A stretch of DNA of 64,000 nt, taken from an uncultured Bacilli bacterium. GTDB taxonomy: Bacteria > Bacillota_I > Bacilli_A > RF39 > UBA660. The stretch spans positions 16,750 through 80,749 of the forward strand of contig CAKOOV010000005.1 in NCBI GenBank assembly GCA_934098435.1, in the 5' to 3' direction. The translations under genes and the position numbers were made by a program. Below, one piece after another: positions 6,790 to 51,000 of this stretch (its first letter is position 1; each line of letters begins with the position of its first letter). The notes under the pieces were generated by a model. That model ran no database searches, was not told where the DNA came from, and saw only the letters and a program-made list of their open reading frames with translations.

Positions 6790-9282
6790 ATGAAAAAGAA
6801 AGATTATTACAATTATTTGATTTTAACTGGTATTGTCTTTGTTATTTATATGATTTTAACTCATTTTACTAATGTATTTGGTTCAGATACTGATTGGATA
6901 AATCAACATACTATAATTCCTGATTATTTTAGGCAATTATTTTATAAGACAGGTAATTTGATTCCTAGTTTTTCTTTTAACTATGGTGGTGGACAAAATA
7001 TATTTAATTTATCTTATTATGGTTTTTTGAGTCCGATTATTTTACCTTCTTATTTATTGCCTTTTGTTAGTATGAAGACTTATATGACAGTAGTGGATTT
7101 TATTATTGTTGTTTCTTCTGGTATATTGTTTTATAAGTGGATTTTATCTAATAAGTATAATAGAAATATTTCTTTTATTACTTCTATTATATTTGTTTTA
7201 TCTGAATCACTTATATTTCAGATGCATAGACATGTTATGTTTGTTAATTATATGCCTTTTTTAATAATGGGACTTATGGGTGTAGATAAGTTATTTAATG
7301 ATAATAAGAAATCTTTACTTATTATTTCAATATTTTTAATGATAATGACTAGTTATTATTATAGTGTTGGTGGTATTGTTGTTATTGGTATTTATTATTT
7401 ATATAAATATTTTAGTGATGATACTAAAAAGGGTATTAAATTATTTACTAAAGATTTGGGTAAATTTATATTATATATTTTAATACCTGTATTAATGGCG
7501 GGTGTATTACTTATTCCTACTATGAGTACTCTTTTAAGTGGTAGAGGTAGTAGTGAGAGTGCTATAAAATTAACTTCTTTATTGGTACCAAATTTTAATT
7601 TTCATAAGATTTTTTGTGGTAATTATACTATTGGTTTATCTATGCTTGGATTTATATCTTTGTTATATTTATTTTATAGTAAGAAGAAGAATAATGTTAT
7701 TTTGGGTATATTATTAAGTATTGTTTTCTTTATTCCTATATTTATGTATATATTAAATGGGGGATTATATTTGAGGGCTAAGTGTTTTATTCCTTTTGCT
7801 CCTTTAATTGGGTATTTAATTGCTTTATTTATTAATGATATTATTAATAATAAGATTGATATTAAGAAATTTATTATTTATATATTATTTGTTTGTATAT
7901 TATTATATTATTTTAATCAAAAACAATATTGTTATTTATACTTAATATTTATTTGTTTAATTCTTATATTATATAATAAGTTTAAATATAAGAATATTAT
8001 TTATATTTCTTTATGTTTAGGTGCTTTTGGAATATGTTTATATACTAATTTTACTGAGGATTATGTAAGTAAGAATATGTATAATGAAATATTTAGTGAA
8101 GATATAGAGAATAGTATTAATAATGTTATTTTAAATGATAATGATTATTATAGATCTAATAGTTTGATGAATCCTACTAAAACTGTAAATAAGATGTATA
8201 ATGATAGGTATTATACTACTAATATTTATTCTTCTACTTATAATTATGATTATTTATATTTTGTTAGGGATATATTTAAGAATAATAGGCTTGAATATAA
8301 TTATTTTATGATTCCTTCTAGTGATAATATATTATTTGATACTTATATGGGTGTTAAGTATTTATATTCTGATTATGATCCAGGACTTGGTTATAGGTCT
8401 ATTGGTAATAATATGTATATGAATGATGATGTGTTTCCTATGCTATATGCTAGTAATAATATTTTAAATGAAAAGGATTTTGATAGTTATGAATATCCTA
8501 ATTATTTAGAACTTCTTCTTAATAATGTTATTACTACTAGTAGTAGTAATAATAGTATTATGAATAATAATACAGAGAAAGTTTCTTTGGAATATGATGT
8601 TATTAGTAATGATGGAGTAGATGTTACTAAGAATGATGATGGTTATGTTCTTAAGGTAAAAGATAAGGGAACTATTAATATTAGATTAAAGGATAAGTTA
8701 GAAAATAAATTATTATTTATTAATTTATATGGTCTTAAGGAAAATAGTTGTAAATATGATAATATTGTTATGTCTATTAATAATATGGATAATTTATTAA
8801 CTTGCAGAGGGTGGACTTATGCTAATAAGAATTATACTTTTAGATATCTTATATCGGATAAGGTAATTCAAGATATTGATATTAAATTAACTAAGGGTAC
8901 TTATAATATTAAAGATATTGAAACTTATGTATTAGATTATGATAATGTTACTGGTATTAAAGATAGGTTTGATAAATTTAATATTACTAGTTTTGGTAAT
9001 GATATAATAGAGGGTAATATTAATGTTACTAGAGATAATTCTTATTTTGTTACTTCTATTCCATATGATAAGGGATTTACTATTAAGGTAGATAATAAGG
9101 TTATTTCTTATGAAAAGGTTGATAAGGCTTTTATTGGTTTTCCTATTACTAAGGGTAAACATGATATTTCTATTGTATATACTGCTCCAGGATTAAAATA
9201 TGGTTTAATATTTAGTATTATTGGTTTTATAATTTATGGAATGGTTATTATTATGGAACATAAAAAGGGTAAAAAACTATAG
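6790..9282 (+). CDS. YfhO-family polytopic membrane glycosyltransferase-like protein
   Basis: 830 aa with many TM helices and a C-terminal extracytoplasmic domain ending in a last TM. Size, architecture and csbB-gtrA context match YfhO. Confidence 0.7.
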   Translation: MKKKDYYNYLILTGIVFVIYMILTHFTNVFGSDTDWINQHTIIPDYFRQLFYKTGNLIPSFSFNYGGGQNIFNLSYYGFLSPIILPSYLLPFVSMKTYMTVVDFIIVVSSGILFYKWILSNKYNRNISFITSIIFVLSESLIFQMHRHVMFVNYMPFLIMGLMGVDKLFNDNKKSLLIISIFLMIMTSYYYSVGGIVVIGIYYLYKYFSDDTKKGIKLFTKDLGKFILYILIPVLMAGVLLIPTMSTLLSGRGSSESAIKLTSLLVPNFNFHKIFCGNYTIGLSMLGFISLLYLFYSKKKNNVILGILLSIVFFIPIFMYILNGGLYLRAKCFIPFAPLIGYLIALFINDIINNKIDIKKFIIYILFVCILLYYFNQKQYCYLYLIFICLILILYNKFKYKNIIYISLCLGAFGICLYTNFTEDYVSKNMYNEIFSEDIENSINNVILNDNDYYRSNSLMNPTKTVNKMYNDRYYTTNIYSSTYNYDYLYFVRDIFKNNRLEYNYFMIPSSDNILFDTYMGVKYLYSDYDPGLGYRSIGNNMYMNDDVFPMLYASNNILNEKDFDSYEYPNYLELLLNNVITTSSSNNSIMNNNTEKVSLEYDVISNDGVDVTKNDDGYVLKVKDKGTINIRLKDKLENKLLFINLYGLKENSCKYDNIVMSINNMDNLLTCRGWTYANKNYTFRYLISDKVIQDIDIKLTKGTYNIKDIETYVLDYDNVTGIKDRFDKFNITSFGNDIIEGNINVTRDNSYFVTSIPYDKGFTIKVDNKVISYEKVDKAFIGFPITKGKHDISIVYTAPGLKYGLIFSIIGFIIYGMVIIMEHKKGKKL

Positions 9283-9369
9283 ATAAAACTATAGTTTTTT
9301 ACTATAATACGAAATAATGATTGTTTATATAGCGTAATAAATTGGCAAAACAGTAAAAAATTACTTTGT

Positions 9370-9398
9370 AAAACAGCTTAATTTTTTAAGCTGTTTTT
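9370..9398 (+). terminator. intrinsic terminator downstream of yfhO-like gene
   Basis: AAAACAGCTTAA-TTTT-TTAAGCTGTTTT followed by T. Confidence 0.55.
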
Positions 9399-9452
9399 CT
9401 ACTAGAGACTTATAGGCTCTAGTAGACCACGGAAGACTTTGGGCTGAAGTGG
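9398..9452 (+). repeat. Two tandem hairpins of the AG-AC..GG-CT family (copies 1a, 1b)
   Basis: 1a: TCTACTAGAG-ACTTATAGG-CTCTAGTAGA (perfect 10 bp). 1b: CCACGGAAG-ACTTTGGG-CTGAAGTGG (6 of 9 pairs). Confidence 0.6.
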
Positions 9453-9472
9453 CAAGATAAGAAAAATTTTTA

Positions 9473-9790: not shown

Positions 9791-11896
9791 ATGAAAGAGA
9801 TTATATTAGATAAGTTAAGAGATAATACTTCTCTTACTATTATGGAGTTAAATGATTTACTTGGTTTAACTACTATTGATGAATATAAAAGTTTACAAAA
9901 TACACTTGATGAAATGGTAAGTGATGGTATTCTTTATTATAGTGATAAGAAAAAGAAATATTTACTTTTAGAAAATAGTCATTTGGTAAAGGGAACTTTA
10001 TCATTAAATGAAAAGGGATTTGGTTTTATTATTATTAATAAGGATACTAAAGATGTTTATGTTAATGAAAAGAATATTAATGGAGCACAAGATGGTGACT
10101 TGGTTTTATTTGAATATTTAAATAAAGATAAAGAAAGACCTGAAGGTAGAATTATTAAAACTATTAAAAGGAATTATGAACCTTTGGTAGGAGAAGTTAT
10201 ATTAGTAGATGGTGAATACTTTGTTAAACCGGATAAAAAGGGAGCTAATATATATATTCCTAGGGATAATTTAAATGGTGCAGTAGAAGGTCATAAAGTA
10301 GTGGTTACTCCTTTAAAAGAGGGTAATAGAGTTGGTAAAATTACTAAGATTATTGGTCATAAGAACGATGTTGGTGTAGATATTTTATCTTTTGTTTATG
10401 AATATAATTTTAGTCCATCTTTTCCAGATGAGGTGGTAGAAGAATTAGATGATATTCCTTCTTATTTGACAGAAGAAGAAATTAATAAGGAATTATCTAG
10501 TGGCAGAAGAGATTTAAGAAGTGAAGAGATATTTACTATTGATGGATCTGATACTAAGGATATAGATGATGCTATTTCTTTATCTAAATTAGATGATGGT
10601 AAATATAAATTGGGAGTACATATAGCGGATGTTTCTTATTATGTTAAGGAAGGTACTAAATTAGATGATGAGGCATATTTTAGAGGTACTAGTGTATATT
10701 TAGTTGATAGGGTATTACCTATGCTTCCACATAAATTATCTAATGGTATATGTTCTTTAAATGAAAATGAAGATAGATTTGCATTTTCTTGTGAGATGAT
10801 TATTGATGATAAGGGAGATATTGGCCACTATGAAATATTTAAGTCTATTATTCGTAGTAGGAAAAAGATGACTTATGAAGAGGTTAATAAGATATTAGAG
10901 GAAAATACTACTAGTGAGGATTATAAACCATTTGAAAAGACTTTACTTTTAATGAATGAATTATCTAAGATATTAAGAAAAAAGATGATTCGTCGTGGTT
11001 ATATTGAATTTGAAAGTACTGAGGCTAAGATTAAAGTTGATGAAAATTGTCATCCTACTCATATTGAATCTAGAGTACAAAGAAGTGGTGAGGAACTTAT
11101 TGAGAACTTTATGATAGCCGCTAATGAAACGGTGGCATCATCTATATATTATAAGAATTTACCTGGTATATATCGTGTTCATGATAAACCTGATGAGAAG
11201 AGACTTGGTGAATTTATGAAGTTCTTATCTTTACATGGATATGTTGTTAATGGTAAAAATAAGATAGATAATCCTAAAGATTTACAACATATTCTTAGTC
11301 AATTAGAAGAGGTACCAGAGGTAAGAGTACTTCATGATATGGCTATTCGTAGTCAGGCTAAGGCTGTATATTCTGATATTAATATTGGACATTTTGGTCT
11401 TGGTAGTAAGTGTTATAGTCATTTTACTTCTCCTATTAGGAGATATCCAGATTTGATTTTACATAGGTTACTTAAGGATTATAATTATAATTATAGTGAT
11501 AGAATAATAAGTGAAAGAAAAGAGGAATTACCTATAGAATGTGAACATTGTTCAATTAGGGAACAAGAGGCTCAAAATTGTGAAAGAGATGTTGACAAGA
11601 TGAAGAAGGCTGAATATATGATGGATCATATTGGTGAAGTGTATGATGGTATTATATCAGGAGTACAAGAGTTTGGTTTCTTTGTTGAACTTGAAAATAC
11701 TATAGAGGGATTAGTTAAAGCTGAAAGTATTAAGGGAGATTATTATGTTTTTGATAATGATTTAATGGCTTTGATTGGTAAAAAGAGTAAGAAGAAATAC
11801 TCTTTTGGAGATAAGGTTAAAGTAAAAGTTACAAGGGCTGATAAAGATAGATCAGAAATTGACTTTGAAATATATGATGATAAAATAACTAAGTAG
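9791..11896 (+). CDS. rnr: ribonuclease R
   Basis: RNB motifs IDGSDTKDIDDAISL and HFGLG...YSHFTSPIRRYPDLILHR, plus a C-terminal S1-like domain. ATG 9791 follows a GAGGAGGG RBS. Confidence 0.9.
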   Translation: MKEIILDKLRDNTSLTIMELNDLLGLTTIDEYKSLQNTLDEMVSDGILYYSDKKKKYLLLENSHLVKGTLSLNEKGFGFIIINKDTKDVYVNEKNINGAQDGDLVLFEYLNKDKERPEGRIIKTIKRNYEPLVGEVILVDGEYFVKPDKKGANIYIPRDNLNGAVEGHKVVVTPLKEGNRVGKITKIIGHKNDVGVDILSFVYEYNFSPSFPDEVVEELDDIPSYLTEEEINKELSSGRRDLRSEEIFTIDGSDTKDIDDAISLSKLDDGKYKLGVHIADVSYYVKEGTKLDDEAYFRGTSVYLVDRVLPMLPHKLSNGICSLNENEDRFAFSCEMIIDDKGDIGHYEIFKSIIRSRKKMTYEEVNKILEENTTSEDYKPFEKTLLLMNELSKILRKKMIRRGYIEFESTEAKIKVDENCHPTHIESRVQRSGEELIENFMIAANETVASSIYYKNLPGIYRVHDKPDEKRLGEFMKFLSLHGYVVNGKNKIDNPKDLQHILSQLEEVPEVRVLHDMAIRSQAKAVYSDINIGHFGLGSKCYSHFTSPIRRYPDLILHRLLKDYNYNYSDRIISERKEELPIECEHCSIREQEAQNCERDVDKMKKAEYMMDHIGEVYDGIISGVQEFGFFVELENTIEGLVKAESIKGDYYVFDNDLMALIGKKSKKKYSFGDKVKVKVTRADKDRSEIDFEIYDDKITK

Positions 11897-30337: not shown

Positions 30338-30403
30338 TTTGTTATTATGATAGACTTTTTTATATAAATTTGATACAATTATTATTGTAAGGAAAGTGAT
30401 GGT

Positions 30404-30688
30404 ATGTATTGTATTAATTGTGGTAATAAATTAGATAAGCGGGCTATGTATTGTCCTAAATGTGGTGTTTATACTGATAATTATATTAAAAGTATGAGGG
30501 ATAAGCCTAGTTTTATATTGGAATTTTTTTCTTTCTTTTTTCCTTTATTTGGGTTTATTGTATATTGGTTTTCGAATAATAGTAAACCTAATAGAGCTGA
30601 TTTATGTCTTAGATATGCAGTGTTTGGAATTTTTATGAATATTCTTATAGGTATAATTAATTTTATTGGAACTACTATTAATGGCTGA
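30404..30688 (+). CDS. zinc-ribbon domain membrane protein
   Basis: N-terminal CINCG...CPKCG ribbon followed by two TM helices. Confidence 0.55.
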   Translation: MYCINCGNKLDKRAMYCPKCGVYTDNYIKSMRDKPSFILEFFSFFFPLFGFIVYWFSNNSKPNRADLCLRYAVFGIFMNILIGIINFIGTTING

Positions 30689-30746
30689 AGTATTGTATTT
30701 TTATTGAATTTATGTTAGAATATTAGTTGTAAAAAAAGGAGATTTT

Positions 30747-31308: not shown

Positions 31309-31974
31309 ATGAAGAAGGTTTTTATTCCTTCGATGGATGATTTATATAAAATGCAAGATATGCATATAAATATATTACCATATTTATATGCTAAGGCTAT
31401 TGAAAGATTATGTATTGAATATAATAATTATCCTAAGATGGGAAGTATATTAAGAAATGAATATAAATATTTACGTGAGGATCCGGTTATTGCTAAGGCT
31501 ATATGTATGATGTATCCTAGTGAGATTATGTATTCTGATATTGTTAAATATGATACTGGTTTAGCTATGAAATTAATTAGTGAACCTAAGAATAATGATA
31601 TTTATAGATTGGATAATATTTCTTACTTTGGTAATAATTTGGATAGTAATTTATTAATTCAAAAAGAAGTTATAAGAATATTGTATAATGAAATTTATAA
31701 TAATCCTAAGTATCGTTTTGAGTATAAGGATAGTAATATTTTAGATGATATTTTTATGGGAAGATTTAATACGACATTATTTTTAGATGATATTACTAAA
31801 GAGCAGCTTGGTTATATTGAACCATATTATGGGTTGGATAGTGATATGTTATCTAATATGATGGAACGTTATGTGAATAGATATGGTATTGATTATATGT
31901 CTAATAATAAGGATATATTAACTAATCAAACTACAGAAGTTAAAAGATTATTTAGATGTATTGATAGAAAATAA
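31309..31974 (+). CDS. hypothetical protein (221 aa)
   Basis: ATG 31309 preferred over GTG 31294 (GGGGTG RBS-like 8 nt upstream). No motif recognised. Confidence 0.5.
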   Translation: MKKVFIPSMDDLYKMQDMHINILPYLYAKAIERLCIEYNNYPKMGSILRNEYKYLREDPVIAKAICMMYPSEIMYSDIVKYDTGLAMKLISEPKNNDIYRLDNISYFGNNLDSNLLIQKEVIRILYNEIYNNPKYRFEYKDSNILDDIFMGRFNTTLFLDDITKEQLGYIEPYYGLDSDMLSNMMERYVNRYGIDYMSNNKDILTNQTTEVKRLFRCIDRK

Positions 31975-32178
31975 GACGATGATAAGGAAATAGTAATATT
32001 AAAGATGCTTTATAGAGAGTTAAGAATGGTGGAAGCTTGACATGATATTTAATATGAATTCACCCTTTAGTTTTAACCGTTTATCTGGTTATAGATTTGA
32101 GTGTATAACAATTGTTATAAAGAAAGGTGGTACCACGGATATTATTCGTCCTTTTATGGTACTATCTTTTTATTTTTA
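31975..32178 (+). promoter_or_regulatory. T-box riboswitch leader with Phe (UUC) specifier
   Basis: GA/K-turn motif GACGATGA...AGAGAG. Specifier context GAA-TTC-A at 32059-32061. Conserved T-box sequence GGTGGTACCACGG at 32126-32138. A terminator alternative GTACCA...TGGTAC is followed by a T run to 32177. Confidence 0.8.
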
Positions 32179-33521: not shown

Positions 33522-35896
33522 TGTTATTAAGTAGAAAGTTTGTAAGTGATTATATTGATTTACCTAAAGATGAGAATATTCATGATATTGCTGAAAAGAT
33601 GACTAGTATAGGTAATGAATATGATTATGAAGGTAAGTTAATACCTTGTAGTGGTTTGGTTATTGGTAAGATTATTGAATGTGAGATGCATCCTGATTCT
33701 ACTAAATTACATATATGTAAGGTTGATGTTGGTAATAAGGTACTTCAGATTGTATGTGGGGCTCCTAATGCTAGATGTGGTATTAAGGTAATAGTAGCAA
33801 TGGATGGGGCAACTCTTCCTGATAAAACTATTAGGAAATCTCTTTTAGCGGGATATGAGAGTAATGGTATGTTATGTTCTTTAGGAGAACTTGGACTTGA
33901 TCATAAATACTTAAAGCAAAGTGATTTGGATGGTATTTGTGAGCTTGATAATGATGCTCCTATTGGGGAGGATCCTATTAAGTATTTGAAACTTGATGAT
34001 GAAGTTATTGATTTTGAACTTACTTCTAATAGGGGTGATTTACTTAGTATATTAGGTATGGCATATGAACTTGGTGCTATATATAATACTAAAGTTAAAG
34101 ATATTGATTTATCTTACAAAGAGAATAATAATAATATTAAAGATTTATTATCTTTGAATGTTAAAACTAATGAATGTTCTTTATTCTTAGTTAAAAAGGC
34201 TATTAATGTTACTATTGGTGAGAGTCCTGATTTTATTAAGAATAGGCTTATTGCTTCTGGTATTAGACCTATTAATAATGTTGTAGATATTTCTAATTAT
34301 GTAATGCTTGAAACTGGACAACCGCTTCATTTTTATGATGCTGATAGACTTGGTAGTTCTATTGGGGTAAGAATGGCAAATGATGGTGAAGATATAACTA
34401 CTTTAGATGGTGAAAAGAGAGTTCTTACTAATAGTGATATGGTTATTGTTAATGATATGGATACTCCTATTGGATTAGCGGGAGTTATGGGTGGTTTATC
34501 TACTGAGGTTGAAAATGATACTAAGAATATAGTAATAGAGAGTGCTATATTTAATCCGACATTAATTAGAAAGACTTCGAAGAAGATACTTAGAAGTGAA
34601 GCTTCTAATAGATTTGAAAAGGGTCTTGATCCTAATAGAACTTATATGGCTATTGAAAGAAGTATGCATTTACTTGAGAAATATGCTGGTGCTACTATTA
34701 TTGGGGGATTATTAGAATATAAGGATATAGATATTAATGATAAGGAAATAACTATTACTTATGATAAGATTAATAAAGTACTTGGTACTGATTTGGATAA
34801 AGAGACAATACTTGATACTTTAGATAGATTAGAATTTACTTATATAACTAATAAAGAAGAAGTAACTATTAGAGTTCCTTCGAGAAGAATTGATGTTAAT
34901 ATTGAAGAAGATATTATTGAAGAAGTTGGAAGGATATATGGTATTGATAATATTCAAGGTAGAAAGATGAATCTTTCGGTAAGAAGTGGTCATGTAGATA
35001 AAACTAATAGAAGTATTAGACATTTGCTTTGTGATTTAGGTCTTAATGAGACTCTTACTTATACTCTTATTAAAGAAGATGATGTATATAAATATACTAC
35101 TGATAGTTTTGATATGGTTAAGATATTGGATCCTATGACTTTAGATAGATGTACTTTAAGATATAGTCTTATTCCTTCACTTTTATCTGTATATGATTAT
35201 AATATTAAAAGGGGTATTACTGATATTAATTTATTTGAAATAGGTAAGGGCTTTTATAATAAGAATAATATATATGGGGAAGAAGAGAGATTATCTATTC
35301 TTATGAGTGGTAATTATTATCATACTTTGGGTAATATTAGGAAAGCGGATTTTTATGTTATTAAGGGAATAGTAGAAAGATTACTTAATTATTTGGGTTA
35401 TAATGGTAGATATTATTTTAAAGTAATGGATCTTCCTAGTGAATTACATCCTGGTGTTAGTGCTTCTATATATATTGATAATAAAAAAATAGGAATTATT
35501 GGTAAGATACATCCTAATGTGACTAAAGATAATATTTTTGTTAGTGAGATTAATTTATCATTACTTAAGAGTATTAGAACTTCTAAAATGAAATATAAAG
35601 AGATTAGTAAATATCCTTCTATATCTAAAGATGTTGCTTTCTTACTTAGAGATGATATTACTTCAGAAGAAGTAATTAAGGCTATTAAGAAAGCTGGAGG
35701 TAGATTACTTACTAAGATAGAGGTATTTGATTTATATAAAGGTATAGGTACTCCTGAAAATATGAAATCTTTAGCATTTAAGTTATATTTTGAAGATCCT
35801 AATAAGACTTTGACTTTAGATGAGGTTATGCCTATATTTGAAAAGATTATTACTGAGATTGAAAAGAAATATAATGCTAGTGTAAGAAGTAGTTAA
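33521..35896 (+). CDS. pheT: phenylalanyl-tRNA synthetase beta subunit
   Basis: 791 aa with a tRNA-binding domain (HPDSTKLHICKVDVG) and B3/4, B5 and FDX-ACB domain order. ATGA-type overlap with pheS. Confidence 0.95.
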   Translation: MLLSRKFVSDYIDLPKDENIHDIAEKMTSIGNEYDYEGKLIPCSGLVIGKIIECEMHPDSTKLHICKVDVGNKVLQIVCGAPNARCGIKVIVAMDGATLPDKTIRKSLLAGYESNGMLCSLGELGLDHKYLKQSDLDGICELDNDAPIGEDPIKYLKLDDEVIDFELTSNRGDLLSILGMAYELGAIYNTKVKDIDLSYKENNNNIKDLLSLNVKTNECSLFLVKKAINVTIGESPDFIKNRLIASGIRPINNVVDISNYVMLETGQPLHFYDADRLGSSIGVRMANDGEDITTLDGEKRVLTNSDMVIVNDMDTPIGLAGVMGGLSTEVENDTKNIVIESAIFNPTLIRKTSKKILRSEASNRFEKGLDPNRTYMAIERSMHLLEKYAGATIIGGLLEYKDIDINDKEITITYDKINKVLGTDLDKETILDTLDRLEFTYITNKEEVTIRVPSRRIDVNIEEDIIEEVGRIYGIDNIQGRKMNLSVRSGHVDKTNRSIRHLLCDLGLNETLTYTLIKEDDVYKYTTDSFDMVKILDPMTLDRCTLRYSLIPSLLSVYDYNIKRGITDINLFEIGKGFYNKNNIYGEEERLSILMSGNYYHTLGNIRKADFYVIKGIVERLLNYLGYNGRYYFKVMDLPSELHPGVSASIYIDNKKIGIIGKIHPNVTKDNIFVSEINLSLLKSIRTSKMKYKEISKYPSISKDVAFLLRDDITSEEVIKAIKKAGGRLLTKIEVFDLYKGIGTPENMKSLAFKLYFEDPNKTLTLDEVMPIFEKIITEIEKKYNASVRSS

Positions 35897-35910
35897 GTCT
35901 GCTTCTTTTT
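35884..35910 (+). terminator. intrinsic terminator overlapping the pheT stop
   Basis: AAGAAGTAG-TTAAGT-CTGCTTCTT followed by TTT. Confidence 0.6.
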
Positions 35911-35911
35911 A

Positions 35912-35940
35912 TTGACACAGATAGTTATTAATGATAAAAT
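35912..35940 (+). promoter_or_regulatory. sigma-A-type promoter for 35969-37486
   Basis: TTGACA, 17 nt, TAAAAT. Confidence 0.55.
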
Positions 35941-35968: not shown

Positions 35969-37486
35969 ATGAGTACTAAGAAAAATATAAAGGAAATAAT
36001 GAGTAAAAGATATATTCAAATTGGTATATTGATTGTATTAATATCTTTAGTATGTTTAATGGGTACTTATGCTTGGTTTACTTGGGCTAGTCCTAGTAAT
36101 ACTAATGTTACTTTATCGATAGGTAATTTAGCTGATGTAACTTTTACTAGTGGTCCTGATATTAATGTATCTAATTTAGCACCTGTATATAATTATACTG
36201 ATGGAGTAAGTACTACTTTTGTTATGAAGAATAATAGTACCACTAATAATCTTAATTATGAAATAAAATTAGATGTAACTAGTATTTCTAATGAACTTAA
36301 GAGTGGATCATTTAAATATACTTTATTAAAAGATAATAAAGTAGTACAAACTGGTAATCTTAAGAATGCAGTAAATGGTAAAACTTTAATATTAAATACT
36401 GGTTCATTAGCTAAATCATCTACTTCTAATTATAAACTATATTTTTGGATAGATGGTAATATAGAAAATAGTTCTAGTATGATGAATAAGTCTTTGGTAG
36501 GTAAGATAGATGTAGGTGAAAAGATTACATATATAAATAATTTATATAATAATAGTACTAAGACACCAGTAACAAATAATAGTATTACATATCAGTATGA
36601 TACTACAAATAATTTAATGCAAGATACTGCAGGTAACATAAGATATTATGGGGCCTCTCCTAATAACTATGTATATTTTAATTGTGATAGTTATCCTAGT
36701 ACTAACTGTGAACTATGGAGAATAATAGGAGTATTTGATGGTAAAATAAAATTAATGAGAAATAGTACTATAGGCTCATATTCTTGGGATACATCTGCAA
36801 GTGCAGTAAACTCTGGATATGGCGTAAATGAATGGAGTCAAGCTGATTTAATGAAACTTCTTAATCCAGGTCACGAATCGGAATCCGTAGGAGGAAGTCT
36901 ATATTATAATAGCAAGTCAGGTACATGCTATTCTGGTCAAAGTAATGCTACTAAATCATGCAATTTTACTAGTACAGGTATAAAAAATGATGTTACAAGA
37001 AATATGATTGCCGAGACAACATGGAATCTTGGATGGTGGGATACTTCTAGTATATATTCTAATGTAATGTATGAAAAAGAAAGAGGGACAACAGTAATAT
37101 CAAATCCTAGTGATGGTATAACTAGAACAACTACATGGACCGGTAAAATAGCTTTGCCATATCCATCTGACTATGGCTATGCAACTGATTTAAGCAAATG
37201 TTCCCAAGTATTATATAATTATGCCAGTAGTACTGACTCATATGCATGTCGTAGTAATGATTGGATGTATCCGATATTGGGTACAAGTAACTGGGGAAGG
37301 TTATTAACCCCTGTCTCAGACTATGCGGACGTTGCGTTCGACGTGAACTCGATGAGCTATGTCAACAGCGGCCATCGCGTCTGTAATGCGTATGGGGTCG
37401 CTCCAGTCCTTTATCTTGGTTCTGACCAAGATATAGTGTCAGGGGATGGTTTGCAAAGTAATCCATATAAGTTAACTGGGAATTAA
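35969..37486 (+). CDS. exported protein with TasA/SipW-type signal-like N-terminus and lectin-like C-terminus (candidate DGR target)
   Basis: N-terminal TM/signal ending in GTYAWFT. The C-terminus WGRLLTP...AYGVAPVLYL resembles the ends of DUF1566/DUF6273/CLec-type domains by eye. Confidence 0.6.
   Translation: MSTKKNIKEIMSKRYIQIGILIVLISLVCLMGTYAWFTWASPSNTNVTLSIGNLADVTFTSGPDINVSNLAPVYNYTDGVSTTFVMKNNSTTNNLNYEIKLDVTSISNELKSGSFKYTLLKDNKVVQTGNLKNAVNGKTLILNTGSLAKSSTSNYKLYFWIDGNIENSSSMMNKSLVGKIDVGEKITYINNLYNNSTKTPVTNNSITYQYDTTNNLMQDTAGNIRYYGASPNNYVYFNCDSYPSTNCELWRIIGVFDGKIKLMRNSTIGSYSWDTSASAVNSGYGVNEWSQADLMKLLNPGHESESVGGSLYYNSKSGTCYSGQSNATKSCNFTSTGIKNDVTRNMIAETTWNLGWWDTSSIYSNVMYEKERGTTVISNPSDGITRTTTWTGKIALPYPSDYGYATDLSKCSQVLYNYASSTDSYACRSNDWMYPILGTSNWGRLLTPVSDYADVAFDVNSMSYVNSGHRVCNAYGVAPVLYLGSDQDIVSGDGLQSNPYKLTGN
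37307..37411 (+). other. GC-rich, adenine-poor NNC-codon patch (candidate DGR variable region)
   Basis: Hand count of 37310-37409 gives ~57% G+C and ~18% A. Codons: gac gac ttc gac aac agc gtc aac agc ggc cgc gtc gtc. Confidence 0.45.
37412..37433 (+). other. perfect hairpin immediately 3' of the GC-rich patch
   Basis: TATCTTGGT-TCTG-ACCAAGATA (9-bp stem, 4-nt loop), inside the coding sequence. Confidence 0.6.
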
Positions 37487-37497
37487 TTTAATGTAAT

Positions 37498-37527
37498 AAA
37501 AAAATAGGTTTTGATAACCTATTTTTT
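37498..37527. terminator. bidirectional intrinsic terminator between convergent genes
   Basis: AAAAAAATAGGTT-TTGAT-AACCTATTTTTT, with A/T runs on both sides. Overlaps the stop of the minus-strand gene. Confidence 0.7.
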
Positions 37528-37945
37528 ATATACATTCTACATATGTATCGTCTAGACATCTTAGTATGCAGCAGCAACCTAGATTTATTGTGAAGAAAGA
37601 ATTGGTTGCTTCGTAAGGAAATACACTTGATTCATCGGTATTTGGTGCTAGTACTCTACATGTAGCACAGCATCCGTCTAATTTTTCTAATCTAAATACT
37701 GTACTTGTAGTAGATACTGCTGGATCTTTACTTATTGGCATTGCTAATGGTGTTCCACCATTACCACAAGTATATAGAACGATTGGTCTAGTGTTATAAC
37801 ACAAGCTACTATTTTGTCCTAAAAAGCCTCTATCACAGGTTTCTAAACAGCAGTCATTTTGACATACGCTTTGTTGTAATATTAAAATAACTTTTAGGAT
37901 ATCTGCGATGCAATTTTCGCAAGTATTATTTTCATTGTTACACAT
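37526..37945 (-). CDS. Cys-rich CotY/CotZ/ExsY-like spore coat/exosporium protein
   Basis: 17 Cys. The pattern NC.ADIL..IL.LQ, FR.EKLDGCCATCR and INLGCCCILRCL matches my memory of the B. subtilis CotZ/CotY layout. ATG 37945 follows an AAGGGGTGG RBS. Confidence 0.5.
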   Translation of the reverse strand: MCNNENNTCENCIADILKVILILQQSVCQNDCCLETCDRGFLGQNSSLCYNTRPIVLYTCGNGGTPLAMPISKDPAVSTTSTVFRLEKLDGCCATCRVLAPNTDESSVFPYEATNSFFTINLGCCCILRCLDDTYVECI

Positions 37946-38057
37946 ATAATCCACCCCTTTTTTATATTCAATATAACTTATGTTAATTAATTATAAAAAT
38001 GCACTACTAATACCTAGTATTTTATAATATTTTTATCTATCTGTCATATATAGTATT

Positions 38058-39603: not shown

Positions 39604-41142
39604 ATGAAAAAGAAAATGTTATTCTTAATGGCAGCACTTGCTTTTATGGTGTCTTTACCAATTGCTAGTGCTGAAGTATTGGAAGCAAAAGATACTGCTA
39701 CTTTAGTAGAAATGGTTAAAAAGGCTAAGGATGGGGATACTGTTAAGTTAGTTGCTGATATTACTGGTTATGATCAGAAACTTGAAATAAATGGTAACAG
39801 AACTATAACGCTTGATATGAACGGTCATAATATTACATATCTTACTGATTCTAAGTCTTTTATAGGTGTTTATGGTGCTACTTTGATTGTTAAAGGTAGT
39901 GGCGTTATTACTAATGATACCGATTCAGGACTTAATGTATATGGAAAAGAGACAAAAGATGATAGTTTTGCTTCAAAACTTGTTGTGGAAAAAGATGTTA
40001 CTTTAAAAGGTAAATATGGTTTAGCAATATTCTGGGACGTAAAAAATGGTTCTCATGGTGCAAGCGTTGATTTTTATGGTAAGGTTGATGTTACCAACAA
40101 TGGTATTGCTACTAATGGTGATATTTTAAATGAAGATGGTCCAGTTGTTAATATTAAAAAAGGAGCAGTTGTAAAGTCAACTGGTGCTGACGGAGTTGCT
40201 GTTTATTGTGCAGGTAATGGTACTTATAATATTGAAGATGGTGCTACTATTACAGGTGCAACTGGTATTGAAGTAAGAGCAGGTAAATTAAATGTTAAAG
40301 GTGGTACTATTACTGGTGCTGCAAAAGAATTAACATCAAAAGCTAATGGTAGTGGAAGTACTACTGTTGGTGCTGGTATTGCTGTTGTACAACATACTAC
40401 TCAATTACCTATTGAAGTTAATATTACAGGTGGTACTATTACTGGTGCTGAAGCTTTATATGTAAATAATACTCAAGGAAATCCTACTACAGCATGGGCT
40501 AAAGTTAATGTTGATGTAACTGGCGGAACATTTAATACAGATGTTACTAAATTTGTAGGAGATAAATATGTAGTTAACAAAAATGGTAACTCATATGCAG
40601 TAATAGAAAACAAAGTGTTAGAAACTAATGATGAAAAGGTTATTTTTGAAAGTGCAGAAGCTATTAGAAATGATTTAGTTTTAAATGTAACTGAAAAAAG
40701 TGAAGATGAAGTTAAAAAAGGTTCTGAAAAGGTAACTGATGCATATAAGGATAATAAGAAAGTAAAAGATGTTAAACTAATTAGTTTATATGAAATTAAT
40801 GTTTTAAATGGTGATGGTAGAATTGAAGAATTAGAAGATGGTAATTATACAATTTCTATTGCTATTGCTGAAAGTGAACAAAAATTTAATACTTATAAAG
40901 TTGTATATTTTGATGAAGATGGAAAATTAGTTGAGACTTTAGATGCTAAATTAGAAAATGGTAAAGTAGTGTTTACTACTACTCATTTAAGTACTTATGG
41001 TGTTGTTGGATATAATACTGTAGCTTCTGAGAATCCTAAAACTTCTGATATGAATCTAGCTTTAATTCTTGCTTTATTGGGATTCGCTTCAGTTGGTACT
41101 GTATTAATTTCAAGAAGAAAATTAGCTAAGAATAATAAATAA
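39604..41142 (+). CDS. cell-wall-anchored surface protein with beta-helix-like GGTITGA repeats and an NPKTS sorting signal
   Basis: Signal peptide ...PIASA|EV and repeated GGTITGA / G.T.TGA segments. The C-terminal NPKTS (41032-41046) is followed by a hydrophobic stretch and an RRKLAKNNK tail. Confidence 0.7.
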   Translation: MKKKMLFLMAALAFMVSLPIASAEVLEAKDTATLVEMVKKAKDGDTVKLVADITGYDQKLEINGNRTITLDMNGHNITYLTDSKSFIGVYGATLIVKGSGVITNDTDSGLNVYGKETKDDSFASKLVVEKDVTLKGKYGLAIFWDVKNGSHGASVDFYGKVDVTNNGIATNGDILNEDGPVVNIKKGAVVKSTGADGVAVYCAGNGTYNIEDGATITGATGIEVRAGKLNVKGGTITGAAKELTSKANGSGSTTVGAGIAVVQHTTQLPIEVNITGGTITGAEALYVNNTQGNPTTAWAKVNVDVTGGTFNTDVTKFVGDKYVVNKNGNSYAVIENKVLETNDEKVIFESAEAIRNDLVLNVTEKSEDEVKKGSEKVTDAYKDNKKVKDVKLISLYEINVLNGDGRIEELEDGNYTISIAIAESEQKFNTYKVVYFDEDGKLVETLDAKLENGKVVFTTTHLSTYGVVGYNTVASENPKTSDMNLALILALLGFASVGTVLISRRKLAKNNK

Positions 41143-41213: not shown

Positions 41214-42239
41214 GTGAAAGATGATAATTATGTACCAAGACATGCTAATAATGATAATGTTATTCATAATTGGAATGAAGATTTTATGAATCAAAATAAT
41301 ATTAATAATAATGGTAATTATACTTCTAATAATATATTAGATAATTTAGATGATATTGATTATTTTAAACGTTATGACTTAGATGATAATAATAATAATA
41401 ATGTAGATAGTGAATTAAATAATAAGAAAAAGAGAAAGAAAAATACTGGTTTTATTTGGAAAGTTTTATTGGTATTATTTATTGTTATTATTATTGGTAG
41501 TTCTCTTAAAATTATTTTATGGTTAATTGATAATAAAAGGACTTCTAATAATATTGATGATATTAGTAGTACTACTGATATTATTTTTAGGGAGGATAAT
41601 GAGAATACGGAGTTAATTAATGAGGATGATGATAAGAATAGTGATTATTGGTATTATATTAAGTTTCCTTTAATTGATGTGGATATTAATAAACTTAAGA
41701 GTAAGAATAGTGATACTGTTGGATGGGTTAATGTTAATAATACAAATATTAATTATCCTTATGTACAAAGAGATGATAATGTTTTTTATTTAGATCATTC
41801 TTATGATAAAAAGTATAATGAGGCTGGATGGGTATTTTTGGATTATCGTAATAATAAGGATTTGTCTGATAGGAATAATATTTTATATGCTCATAGTAGG
41901 TTAGATAAGACGATGTTTGGTTCTCTTAGTAAAACGCTTCATTCTTCTTGGTTTACTAATTTGGATAATCATATTATTAGGATATCTACGGAAAATGATA
42001 ATACTTTATGGCAGATATTTTCGGTATATAAGATTAAAGAAGAGAGTTATTATATTACTACTGATTTTAATAGTGATAATGAATATACTAAGTTTTTAGA
42101 TACTATTAAGAATAGGAGTATTTATAATTTTAATACTAAGGTTACCGCTGAAGATAAGATTCTTACACTTAGTACTTGTTACTCTGATACAGAAAGAACT
42201 GTTGTTCATGCTAAACTTATTAAGAGGAGTAAAAACTAA
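41214..42239 (+). CDS. srtB: class B sortase
   Basis: GWVNV..TNINYPYVQ..DN.FYL, ILYAHS (His) and LTLSTC (Cys) motifs with a downstream Arg. GTG start after an AGGTGA RBS. Long Asn-rich N-terminal region plus a TM. Confidence 0.8.
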   Translation: MKDDNYVPRHANNDNVIHNWNEDFMNQNNINNNGNYTSNNILDNLDDIDYFKRYDLDDNNNNNVDSELNNKKKRKKNTGFIWKVLLVLFIVIIIGSSLKIILWLIDNKRTSNNIDDISSTTDIIFREDNENTELINEDDDKNSDYWYYIKFPLIDVDINKLKSKNSDTVGWVNVNNTNINYPYVQRDDNVFYLDHSYDKKYNEAGWVFLDYRNNKDLSDRNNILYAHSRLDKTMFGSLSKTLHSSWFTNLDNHIIRISTENDNTLWQIFSVYKIKEESYYITTDFNSDNEYTKFLDTIKNRSIYNFNTKVTAEDKILTLSTCYSDTERTVVHAKLIKRSKN

Positions 42240-50926: not shown

Positions 50927-51000
50927 GCCGAATTAGTTTAGTGGTAGAACAAGGCCCTCGTAATGCCTAGAGGTAAGTTCGATTCTTACATTCGGCACCA
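50927..51000 (+). tRNA. tRNA-Thr (anticodon CGT), CCA encoded
   Basis: Hand-folded cloverleaf. Acceptor GCCGAAT/ATTCGGC, D arm GTTT/GAAC, anticodon loop CTCGTAA (U33, CGU), T arm GTAAG-TTCGATT-CTTAC, discriminator A plus CCA. One C.U mismatch at 31-39. Confidence 0.85.

Follow-up and report, generated by a model that had tools for sequence, protein, structure and literature searches.

A probable diversity-generating retroelement variable region at the C-terminus of a chromosomal, predicted surface protein of an uncultured gut Bacilli bacterium

Introduction

Why should the last codons of a gene in a 27% G+C genome turn abruptly G+C-rich and poor in adenine? The question is raised by a stretch of 64,000 nucleotides from an uncultured Bacilli bacterium (contig CAKOOV010000005.1 of assembly GCA_934098435.1; the window from here on). 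A first-pass annotation, made from the letters alone, read the end of one gene in it as a variable region (VR), the short part of a gene that a diversity-generating retroelement (DGR) rewrites by reverse transcription, placed at the C-terminus of an exported protein. But is there a template repeat (TR) from which such a region could have been copied? Is the variation between strains tied to the adenines of that template? Is the reverse transcriptase (RT) still at hand? Could the same pattern arise with no retroelement at all? A matching TR and adenine-tied variation support the annotation's reading: 37307-37414 is very probably the VR of a DGR target, a surface protein, a judgement that includes both a system still present and one since lost.

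The patch and its gene

By composition count the 100 nucleotides at 37310-37409 hold 57% G+C and 18% A, just as first described; the mean G+C of the window is 26.9%. When G+C was scanned in 100-nt segments over all 64 kb (standard deviation 6.6%), the maximum of 0.56 was this patch, and the 10 of about 6400 segments reaching at least 50% were every one consistent with its locus. The encoded peptide, WGRLLTPVSDYADVAFDVNSMSYVNSGHRVCNAYGVAPVLYL, and the GTYAWFT motif near the N-terminus are both as annotated, in the list of open reading frames. Also upheld was the statement that the window holds no second copy of the patch and no RT: blastn-short returned nothing longer than 12 nt, a pattern of the fixed VR bases with three mismatches allowed matched the VR itself and nothing else in the 64 kb, and tblastn with proteins of related cassettes found no RT, Avd or accessory gene below E = 0.09. 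The gene and its surroundings comprise the following features.

35884-35907: terminator-like hairpin of pheT, just before the promoter-like site of the target gene
35912-35940, + strand: promoter-like site, TTGACA-17-TAAAAT with TG (consensus scan, 11/12 matches), of putative function
35969-37486, + strand: predicted DGR target gene, 505 aa (list of open reading frames, synteny, homology to cis-targets)
37504-37527, no strand assigned: AT-rich stem-loop ATAGGTT-ttgat-AACCTAT, between an A-run and a T-run (read from the sequence)

In every strain examined (L001-L010 and L098-L102) the gene lies between pheT and a convergent cotZ-like gene. The locus is chromosomal, with pheT on one side and sporulation genes on the other, and has no phage context. 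The stem-loop at 37504-37527, unchanged across strains and situated between the two convergent genes, is likely a bidirectional terminator; a consensus scan did not pick it up, its G-C pairs being too few.

A template repeat in other metagenome records

Where could the template be? Metagenome contigs were searched with a TR-specific pattern, which found record L087, carrying a 108-nt copy of the same length as the VR. This repeat defines type A, and a second type-A TR allele is present in L111.

37307-37414, + strand: variable region, 108 nt, gap-free to the type-A TR at 162-269 of L087 (alignment, Fisher test)

Between the window VR and the L087 TR, 15 of 33 adenines are changed compared with 7 of 75 other bases (Fisher p = 5e-5); for the VR of strain locus L003 and the L111 TR, the counts are 19 of 35 adenines and 6 of 76 other bases. 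A TR-like copy with mismatches concentrated at adenines, much as the annotation had anticipated, exists in metagenome records other than the window's own. The number of AAC codons in the TR alleles, five or six, goes with the length of the VR alleles, 108 or 111 nt. The seven non-adenine mismatches to L087 (sibling cognate pairs have two) are all G-to-A or C-to-T, and such GC-to-AT changes are expected from either a different TR allele or decay without re-homing. TRs of types B, C and E were also tried as templates and rejected, with 20-35 non-adenine mismatches and GCGTGG in place of the GCGTTC of the VR.

The type-A TR has a promoter that matches the sigma-70 consensus at 12 of 12 positions. 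It is followed in L087 by a 96-aa ORF, a MutS_I-like ORF of 121 aa (E = 4e-5) and the beginning of Avd. The Avd fragments, 38 aa long in L087 and 53 aa in L111, are clear homologues of the bAvd of sibling cassettes, and both records end inside Avd, before any RT position. Neither the VR nor the TR spacer matched Rfam.

What would a complete cassette look like? In the siblings (L088-L097, L103-L110 and L115-L117) the order is cis-target, TR, a 98-aa ORF, a 120-aa ORF, bAvd and RT (RVT_1); L113 retains the TR-to-RT part only, and L067 has a single upstream ORF. The sibling RT is an RVT_1 protein of 351-358 aa, with LPIGNMTSQ in the RT of L067, and in L067 and in types C and E all core VR/TR mismatches fall at adenines. 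The window protein is 46% identical over its full length to a type-B cis-target that adjoins a DGR cassette; none of the genes flanking cassettes of types B, C or E occurs in the window. Of the RT and Avd-like gene that the annotation proposed to look for beside the TR, the start of Avd is seen next to the type-A TR, together with a MutS-like gene, and a DGR-type RT is read in the sibling cassettes only; for the type-A cassette we infer one. Three protein clusters (P0188, P0191 and P0129) were considered as type-A RTs and set aside, as they belong to the further TR type, E, or their sequence ends before the TR.

Variation follows the adenines of the template

Is the patch variable, and where? 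Column entropy was computed over 81 close homologues or alleles (85-100% identity), among which there are 38 VR alleles. The variation clusters in residues 441-476: entropy averages 0.22 bits per column over residues 1-439 and is 1.9-2.9 bits at 16 columns within 449-475.

37313-37391, + strand: hypervariable codon stretch (residues 449-475), from the first to the last mismatch at an A site (entropy of 81 alleles, DNA alignment of four alleles)

These 16 columns of highest entropy are exactly the codons of the type-A TR that contain adenine, namely 13 AAC or AAT codons and three with a single A (ACG, TAT and TAC); the test of A-codon columns against entropy over the 81 alleles gives a Mann-Whitney p of 1e-5. 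In the ACG column the residues are mostly T, A and S, and in the TAY columns mostly Y, S, F and C. The abundance of NNC codons in the patch had been attributed to AAC templates; the adenine-templated origin stands, with the correction that both AAC and AAT serve as templates. Between lineages the DNA of the pheT and cotZ flanks diverges by about 2% and that of the VR by 29-45%, so that hypervariability between strains is, as predicted, confined to the patch and to its NNY-type codons.

The 3' element and the hairpin

37394-37409, + strand: IMH-like G+C-rich 3' element, GGGGTCGCTCCAGTCC, near-invariant in four VR alleles
37412-37433, + strand: perfect hairpin TATCTTGGT-TCTG-ACCAAGATA, 9-bp stem and 4-nt loop, within the coding sequence and 2 nt past the IMH-like element

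Apart from single-base variants in L007 and L008, the 3' element is strongly conserved across the four VR alleles. The T at 37407 of the VR is C in every TR observed: wherever both can be read, in types A, B and C, the VR has CCAGTC and the TR CCAGCC, and the cis-VR of type E also has CCAGTC. By analogy with the initiation-of-mutagenic-homing (IMH) element of studied DGRs, it may have a role in homing. The hairpin, which the annotation had likened to an element downstream of VR in the Bordetella phage DGR, where a hairpin or cruciform helps in recognising the target, is present and folds as DNA with -7.5 kcal/mol, more favourably than 197 of 200 shuffled sequences (z = -2.8), but it is not conserved in sibling targets. 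DNA folding of the equivalent segments gave no significant hairpin at the cis-VRs of types B, C and L067, and within the strains L007 and L008 carry one-sided, uncompensated changes in the stem.

The target protein

What kind of protein carries the patch? An AF2 model with an overall pLDDT of 91.6 divides it into three parts (an earlier model, built from close homologues only, had a pLDDT of 37 and was unusable).

36008-36082, + strand: N-terminal hydrophobic helix (residues 14-31), then GTYAWFT (32-38) (AF2 helix)
36101-36523, + strand: predicted N-terminal β-sandwich, CBM-like (residues ~45-185) (AF2 and Foldseek)
36524-37483, + strand: predicted enlarged C-type-lectin-like C-terminal domain (residues ~186-505), with the VR near its end (AF2 and Foldseek)

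The helix at residues 14-31, which runs into a low-confidence linker (32-41), is predicted to be a signal peptide or membrane anchor. Of the TasA/SipW-type export signal proposed from the sequence, GTYAWFT and the N-terminal helix remain, but not the SipW type: TIGR04088 matches at E = 1.3 with 9.3 bits against a cut-off of 19, and TasA (NF046066) at a sub-threshold E = 0.11. As nothing else matched, the likeness to a SipW signal counts as a lead and not as a finding. The β-sandwich has a pLDDT mostly above 85, and Foldseek matches of about 140-150 columns to CBM35, PA14, BcsB and EclA are assigned to it from their length.

The C-terminal domain is modelled with a pLDDT above 90. [quoted passage not shown] Among DGR targets, DUF6273 is known as a CLec-like domain whose C-terminus bears the VR (PMC10743442, PMC11792537). 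The top 50 structural matches, whose output lacks aligned residue ranges, include no direct match to Mtd or TvpA. The PDB, searched by sequence and by profile, had no match, and neither had Pfam for the window protein at E <= 1; PF19789 (DUF6273) matches 1 of 40 close and 5 of 84 distant family members (best E = 7e-7), and the type-C cis-target reaches 22.3 bits against a cut-off of 23.5. The proposed check by HMM succeeds with some relatives and not with the window protein itself. The family is a more divergent relative of DUF6273 and no member of it by the curated Pfam test. Together, the IgAse and DUF6273 structural matches and the five distant relatives favour the CLec/DUF6273-like target domain suggested at first pass, and the model supports a C-type-lectin-like C-terminal domain distantly related to DUF6273. 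The target-protein family itself is large, with more than 5,000 clusters at 50% identity.

Is the variable region still being written?

If a DGR wrote the VR, where is its cassette? No TR, RT or Avd lies within 10 kb of the target gene in 15 strain loci, nor anywhere in the 64-kb window, and the GTDB representative genome of the window's own species gives no VR or TR match with the fixed-base pattern of the VR. Across GTDB genomes that pattern had 74 chance matches, in high-GC genomes, and one true relative, L067, which has 27.5% G+C and carries its own DGR. The type-A cassette is found in only three short or incomplete records (L087, L111 and L112), none of which extends to the RT, and no contig or sample was found in common between these and the records that bear the target. 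Viral contigs, searched with TR-specific patterns and an accessory protein, yielded no relative. The one match of the VR pattern in viral contigs was by chance, in a high-GC phage, and was discarded, as was the match of L087 in a phage collection, an AT-rich chance match only. We judge the odds to be about even that a functional cognate cassette persists in this genome; such a cassette would presumably sit outside the window, making the VR a remote target.

Turnover of the VR is rare or has stopped. In 45 of 45 allele pairs with at most five residue differences outside the VR there are no differences inside it, so these near-identical backbones give no sign of ongoing diversification. A single VR allele is common to 29 cluster representatives, and identical VRs are found across samples and hosts despite SNPs and an insertion in the flanks. 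Switches on a close backbone are rare, one case being P0052 and P0064.

Is the VR then a fossil, written once by a DGR whose cassette has since been lost here and perhaps in most lineages? On that view the 38 alleles would be standing variation passed down by inheritance, which selection and recombination maintain while AT-biased mutation slowly erodes it. The fossil reading falls within the DGR reading, from which it differs only in the presence or activity of the system here, and we place it a little short of an even chance. The stability of the VR within lineages speaks for it, as does the persistence of the same VR in different hosts whose flanks have slightly diverged; so does the GC-to-AT direction of all seven non-adenine mismatches to the nearest TR. 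RT loss is moreover known in the family, with a frameshifted RT in five type-C loci that all have one VR. Type-A cassettes are also far rarer in databases than the target gene (about 5 protein clusters of type-A accessory proteins against about 90 of type-A target alleles), but part of this rarity may come from fragmented assembly, as type-B cassettes too are mostly on contigs below 5 kb. An orphan would also have to account for a VR whose G+C stays at 53-57% and whose frame is unbroken in all alleles, and for near-identical backbones with very different VRs (8 differences outside, 16 inside). Furthermore, TR length alleles track VR length alleles, which implies that templates and targets co-evolved recently.

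A rather unlikely but more specific scenario is that the pheT-linked target is serviced episodically, in trans, by a rare type-A cassette that has no adjacent target of its own, is present in a minority of strains and is possibly gained and lost repeatedly. Most VR alleles would then be 'frozen', and the 38 or more alleles would record brief bursts followed by loss of the cassette.

Could the pattern arise without a retroelement?

Can an ordinary hypervariable tip look like this, one that owes its diversity to positive selection and to recombination or gene conversion between paralogues? The rest of the gene is divergent too (7.5-11% between lineages outside the VR, against about 2% in the flanks), VR differences correlate with those of the backbone (r = 0.75) and a very large family offers many potential donors. 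Variation is, however, limited to the adenine positions of a promoter-driven non-coding repeat. Columns templated by codons only partly made of A have the predicted residue sets in 81-88% of alleles, and at the AAY-templated columns 1021 of 1028 residues can be encoded by NNY, leaving 7 that cannot. Homologous proteins directly adjoin canonical DGR cassettes, and neither selection nor conversion explains the depletion of adenine together with invariant, interspersed GCG, TTC, GTG and TCG codons. The codon-column test largely refutes this explanation, which we hold to be very improbable. Finally, a mosaic segment recombined from a G+C-richer donor genome, which the abrupt local rise to 57% G+C might bring to mind, has practically no chance of being correct, given that all strains have the patch in frame at one position, as do 46%-identical homologues of equally AT-rich relatives, that its non-adenine positions match a TR from an AT-rich organism, and that the GTDB DNA matches are chance apart from the one AT-rich relative with its own DGR.

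A model, and known systems

Since DGRs are known to work in this way, we infer a homing mechanism for the DGR reading preferred here. The TR, equal in length to the VR, would be transcribed from its own promoter, and a DGR RT with Avd and the MutS-like accessory protein would copy the TR RNA into cDNA, misincorporating opposite adenines. With the G+C-rich 3' element as its guide, in which the VR has T where the TR has C, this cDNA would replace the VR, which is predicted to encode exposed C-terminal strands and loops of the enlarged C-type-lectin-like domain. The scaffold codons of the TR avoid adenine (GCG, TTC, GTG, TCG, GGC and GTC) and its 16 adenine-containing codons (13 AAC/AAT and three single-A) would be randomised by mutagenesis, so that the patch would come out G+C-rich and A-poor in a 27% G+C genome.

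What does the locus add? It brings a chromosomal, non-phage family, missed by Pfam at threshold, to the catalogue of DGR-diversified proteins, in hosts that are uncultured, very AT-rich, spore-forming human-gut Firmicutes. The locus further shows that, in AT-rich genomes, a local G+C jump with adenine depletion at the 3' end of a gene can serve to spot a VR from sequence alone. Many species-level alleles set against strict within-lineage stability and a rare cassette make this family suited to asking how often gut DGRs fire, and what becomes of targets after the retroelement is lost. Our understanding of DGRs is unchanged; the case is solid, and as an instance of a known mechanism it is unremarkable.

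How does it compare with known systems? With the prototype, the Mtd DGR of BPP-1, it has in common adenine-specific TR-to-VR differences, AAY codons, a G+C-rich IMH-like element not identical in VR and TR and, in the window, a hairpin of putative role just past the VR. The TR of BPP-1 is found between avd and brt, adjoining the target, on a phage. The type-A TR, in contrast, precedes the accessory genes, and the window target is not adjacent; the hairpin also differs from that of BPP-1 in being AT-rich, located in coding sequence and absent from sibling targets. DUF6273 targets of gut Firmicute phages (in Faecalibacterium prophages, PMC11792537; the 'tentaclins', PMC10743442) likewise have a CLec-like domain and a C-terminal VR, but they are tail or receptor-binding proteins with phage-borne DGRs, whereas the window gene is chromosomal and below the Pfam threshold.

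Remote targets and accessory sets of MSL plus Avd are documented DGR variations (PMC5758913). The Legionella pneumophila DGR, like the clade of the window, combines Avd with a small MutS-domain-I-like protein (MSL, PMC5758913), and is chromosomal with surface-displayed targets. Beside it, the window clade has the gene order target, TR, ORF, MSL, Avd and RT, in a different phylum and with a different target family. Legionella DGR targets are lipoproteins on an integrative element. Compared with the TvpA DGR of Treponema denticola and the 'lineage 4-like' systems (Wu et al. 2018, PMC5758913), the window target joins a transmembrane or signal helix to a CBM-like sandwich and an enlarged CTLD; in its clade the accessory genes comprise Avd, a MutS-like protein and a further ORF of about 97 aa; and its cognate cassette was not located in the same genome. 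Like the window locus, these systems are chromosomal and non-phage, with a C-terminal VR in a CLec-type surface protein; their targets can sit far from the TR and RT, with several homologous targets per clade (PMC5758913).

The variable patch and its neighbourhood

The patch near the 3' end of the gene at 35969-37486 (+) is the variable region (VR, 37307-37414) of a diversity-generating retroelement (DGR), placed at the tip of a C-type-lectin (CLec)-like surface protein whose gene is not adjacent to its retroelement. The DGR call made in the first-pass annotation is borne out by adenine-specific differences from a template repeat (TR), hypervariability confined to the VR, a G+C-rich 3' element resembling an IMH and a C-type-lectin-like fold. 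The gene itself (505 aa), its C-terminal peptide and the N-terminal GTYAWFT are as first described, and so is the G+C-rich, A-poor composition: positions 37310-37409 have 57% G+C and 18% A, the window mean being 26.9% G+C, and in a 100-nt scan (sd 6.6%) the maximum, 0.56, is the patch itself. The window was also rightly said to contain no TR or reverse transcriptase (RT). blastn-short found no second copy of the patch longer than 12 nt, the pattern of VR fixed bases matched only the VR at up to three mismatches, and tblastn with proteins of related cassettes found no RT, Avd or accessory genes. No Rfam family was found at the patch.

Features of the window around the target gene
31970-32156: T-box leader upstream of pheS (106.8 bits), expected for a Firmicute pheST operon
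35969-37486 (+): target gene
37307-37414: VR
37412-37433: perfect hairpin TATCTTGGT-TCTG-ACCAAGATA, read directly in the sequence
37504-37527: AT-rich bidirectional terminator-like hairpin common to the target and CotZ-like genes
37526-37954 (-): cysteine-rich CotZ-like spore-coat gene, convergent with the target gene
39604-41142: 512-aa surface protein downstream of yqfD, with a hydrophobic sorting-like C-terminal tail
41214-42239: sortase gene
50927-51000: tRNA-Thr, the sole tRNA in the window

The DGR target lies in the midst of sporulation genes, with the CotZ-like gene beside it and yabP and yqfD on its downstream side. The yqfD-linked surface protein and sortase form a neighbouring, second surface locus that varies between strains: in other lineages the surface protein has 439 aa or is split (347 + 58 aa), and the sortase varies from 341 to 375 aa.

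Variation between strains

How variable is the patch? The target protein has about 90 close relatives (clusters at 80-100% identity) in a large protein database, 81 of which were aligned. Residues 1-439 average 0.22 bits of entropy per column, and alternating columns within residues 449-475 reach 1.9-2.9 bits; the codons GCG, TTC, GTG, TCG, GGC and GTC are fixed and scattered among the variable ones. The locus was examined in 15 strain contigs. All 15 have the order pheS-pheT, target gene, convergent cotZ-like gene, yabP, yqfD, surface protein, sortase, and none has an RT within 10 kb of the target gene. The hypervariability expected of the VR is evident when it is set against pheT and cotZ.

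DNA divergence between lineages
pheT and cotZ (flanks): about 2%
Remainder of target gene (35969-37280): 7.5-11%
VR: 29-45%
130 nt 3' of VR: 3-5%

The part of the gene outside the VR is itself more divergent than pheT and cotZ, and the protein has secondary variable clusters at residues 322-326, 358-361 and 416-419. The entire target gene, not its tip alone, behaves like an old allelic series.

A template repeat matching the VR

Which template wrote the patch? A scan of GTDB representative genomes with the pattern of VR fixed bases gave 74 matches by chance, all to high-GC genomes, and a single true relative (L067), a 'Bacilli' MAG of 27.5% G+C carrying a textbook DGR. Its target has a C-terminus homologous to that of our protein, and its TR, ~150 nt downstream of its VR, is followed by a small ORF, an Avd-like ORF and an RT with LPIGNMTSQ. 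A TR-specific pattern, in which adenines were set at the variable sites, matched one metagenome record (L087), where a 108-nt non-coding copy aligns without gaps to 37307-37414. A further metagenome record, L111, holds a second allele of this template.

Changes between VR and TR
Window VR against L087 TR: TR adenines changed 15/33; other bases 7/75; Fisher p 5e-5
L003 (strain locus) VR against L111 TR: TR adenines changed 19/35; other bases 6/76; Fisher p 2e-7

A TR copy differing from the patch only at adenines had been anticipated; the copy exists, with changes concentrated at adenines, not solely there. The seven non-adenine mismatches between the window VR and the nearest TR are all G-to-A or C-to-T; the L111 allele accounts for two of them and the IMH base for one. 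The number of AAC codons in the TR (five or six, depending on the allele) matches the length of the VR (108 or 111 nt).

The TR was also translated codon by codon against the 81 alleles. Its 13 AAC/AAT codons and three codons with one A (ACG, TAT, TAC) make up the 16 columns of highest entropy; among codons without A the maximum is 1.64 bits (Mann-Whitney p = 1e-5). ACG columns give T/A/S and TAY columns Y/S/F/C, matching the adenine-only prediction, and all but 7 of 1028 residues in AAY columns can be encoded by NNY. This pattern is the hallmark of adenine-specific mutagenesis. It excludes both an insert from a GC-rich foreign source and diversifying selection of the ordinary kind as the main cause.

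Fold of the target protein

The target protein has no match in Pfam, or in the PDB by sequence, and a profile search places it in a family of 5,079 clusters at 50% identity (E <= 0.001). An alignment of diverse members gave a confident AF2 model (pLDDT 91.6); close homologues alone gave an unusable one.

Domains in the AF2 model
Residues 14-31: helix
Residues about 45-185: beta-sandwich
Residues about 186-505: large domain; its last strands and loops carry the VR

Foldseek returned matches of about 145 columns to CBM35, PA14 and BcsB-type sugar-binding sandwiches. The best match was the Thomasclavelia ramosa IgA peptidase (321 columns, E = 6e-9), whose N-terminal domain of ~290 residues the authors call an enlarged C-type-lectin-like domain. 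The top viral matches were DUF6273 proteins; DUF6273 has been reported as a CLec-like domain of DGR targets that carries the VR at the C-terminal end (PMC10743442, PMC11792537). The suspected link to CLec or DUF6273 models holds in part: DUF6273 is the sole Pfam family matched by relatives (5/84, best E = 7e-7), the window protein staying below threshold. In the model, the VR is predicted to be displayed on a C-type-lectin-like fold. As for the proposed SipW/TasA-type signal, the motif is present and signal models score only below threshold.

The cassette family

A promoter with a 12/12 match to the sigma-70 consensus precedes the TR of L087 by ~35 nt. After the TR come a conserved spacer, a 96-aa ORF, a 121-aa ORF resembling MutS domain I (E = 4e-5) and the first part of an Avd ORF. 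The spacer (~200 nt; L087 270-480, with equivalents in L111 and in L113, a TR-to-RT fragment) shows conservation across cassette types, has at its end a long stem-loop (GCTAGTACAGAC...GTCTGTACTAG) followed by a T-run, and matches no Rfam family. Promoter and terminal stem-loop together suggest a TR RNA made as a separate, structured transcript.

Through homologues of the MutS-like ORF, three sibling types (B, C and E) came to light, all in chromosomal contexts, C and E upstream of hrcA-grpE-dnaK. Their order is cis-target (521-604 aa), TR, ~98 aa, 120 aa, bAvd and RT (351-358 aa, RVT_1); the type-B cis-target and our protein share 46% identity from end to end, GTYAW motif included. Cognate VR/TR pairs of types C, E and L067 differ at adenines only, plus two bases in the 3' element. 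This element reads CCAGTC in the VR and CCAGCC in the TR of types A (the L087 type), B and C where both are readable, a difference of the IMH/IMH* kind. The B, C and E templates did not write the window VR, given 20-35 non-adenine mismatches and GCGTGG where the VR has GCGTTC. No relatives were found in viral contigs or phage genomes; the family is not phage-borne.

The hairpin at 37412-37433, noted earlier as a possible DGR element, is indeed perfect and unusual, folding better than 197 of 200 shuffles. However, equivalent segments 3' of the cis-VRs in types B, C and L067 are without significant structure, and two strains carry one-sided stem changes. The hairpin might still serve in target recognition, a role that these results do not support.

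Type B is abundant (its accessory protein is listed in 1144 index blocks). Its loci (L088-L097; cis-target 7565-9154, TR 9349-9460) show six distinct cis-VRs at eight loci, two TR variants and at least three contexts (Tad-pilus/yebC, spoIIIAH/gerE, gyrB/rseP); either cassette and target are mobile or several species are involved. Six type-C loci (L103, L104, L106-L109; L104 12518-13783) encode an additional RVT_1 protein (421 aa), inserted between hrcA and the DGR RT and missing from L105 and L110; by its size it is probably a group II intron-type RT.

Is the system still active?

A test for ongoing diversification of the target VR was negative: all 45 allele pairs with at most five differences outside the VR showed none inside it. 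One VR allele is common to 29 cluster representatives, and different hosts with an identical VR can be told apart in the flanks, by SNPs and an inserted gene; the VR marks lineages stably. An extra 558-aa radical-SAM/GNAT gene (L004 2611-4287) lies between the DUF2238 and zinc-ribbon genes upstream of frr in L004, L008-L010, L098 and L100-L102, and is missing from the window lineage (~30340-30740); L003 and L004 share a VR allele and differ in this insertion.

Turnover is pointed to by the total of 38 VR alleles, by a few near-identical backbones with very different VRs (8 differences outside, 16 inside), by the length co-variation of TR and VR, and by type C. There, five loci with a frameshifted RT (L103, L106-L109) have one common cis-VR, and the three with an intact RT (L104, L105, L110) each have a different one. 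In the former, a frameshift near position 10999 leaves two ORFs, of 112 and 207 aa, in place of the RT (about 10682-11736 in L103 and L106). The pattern fits RT-dependent diversification, though clonality, with one clone sampled five times, may explain it at least in part. Our reading is that VR turnover is rare or episodic.

Where, then, is the cassette? The three type-A records are short or cut off and come from other samples, and type-A accessory proteins are far rarer than the target gene in the protein database. The chances that the window's genome still has a working cognate cassette are about even. DGRs that have accessory sets with MutS-like and Avd proteins, or whose targets are over 100 kb away from the RT, have been described (PMC5758913), and the system of the window would work in the same way as known chromosomal DGRs with remote targets.
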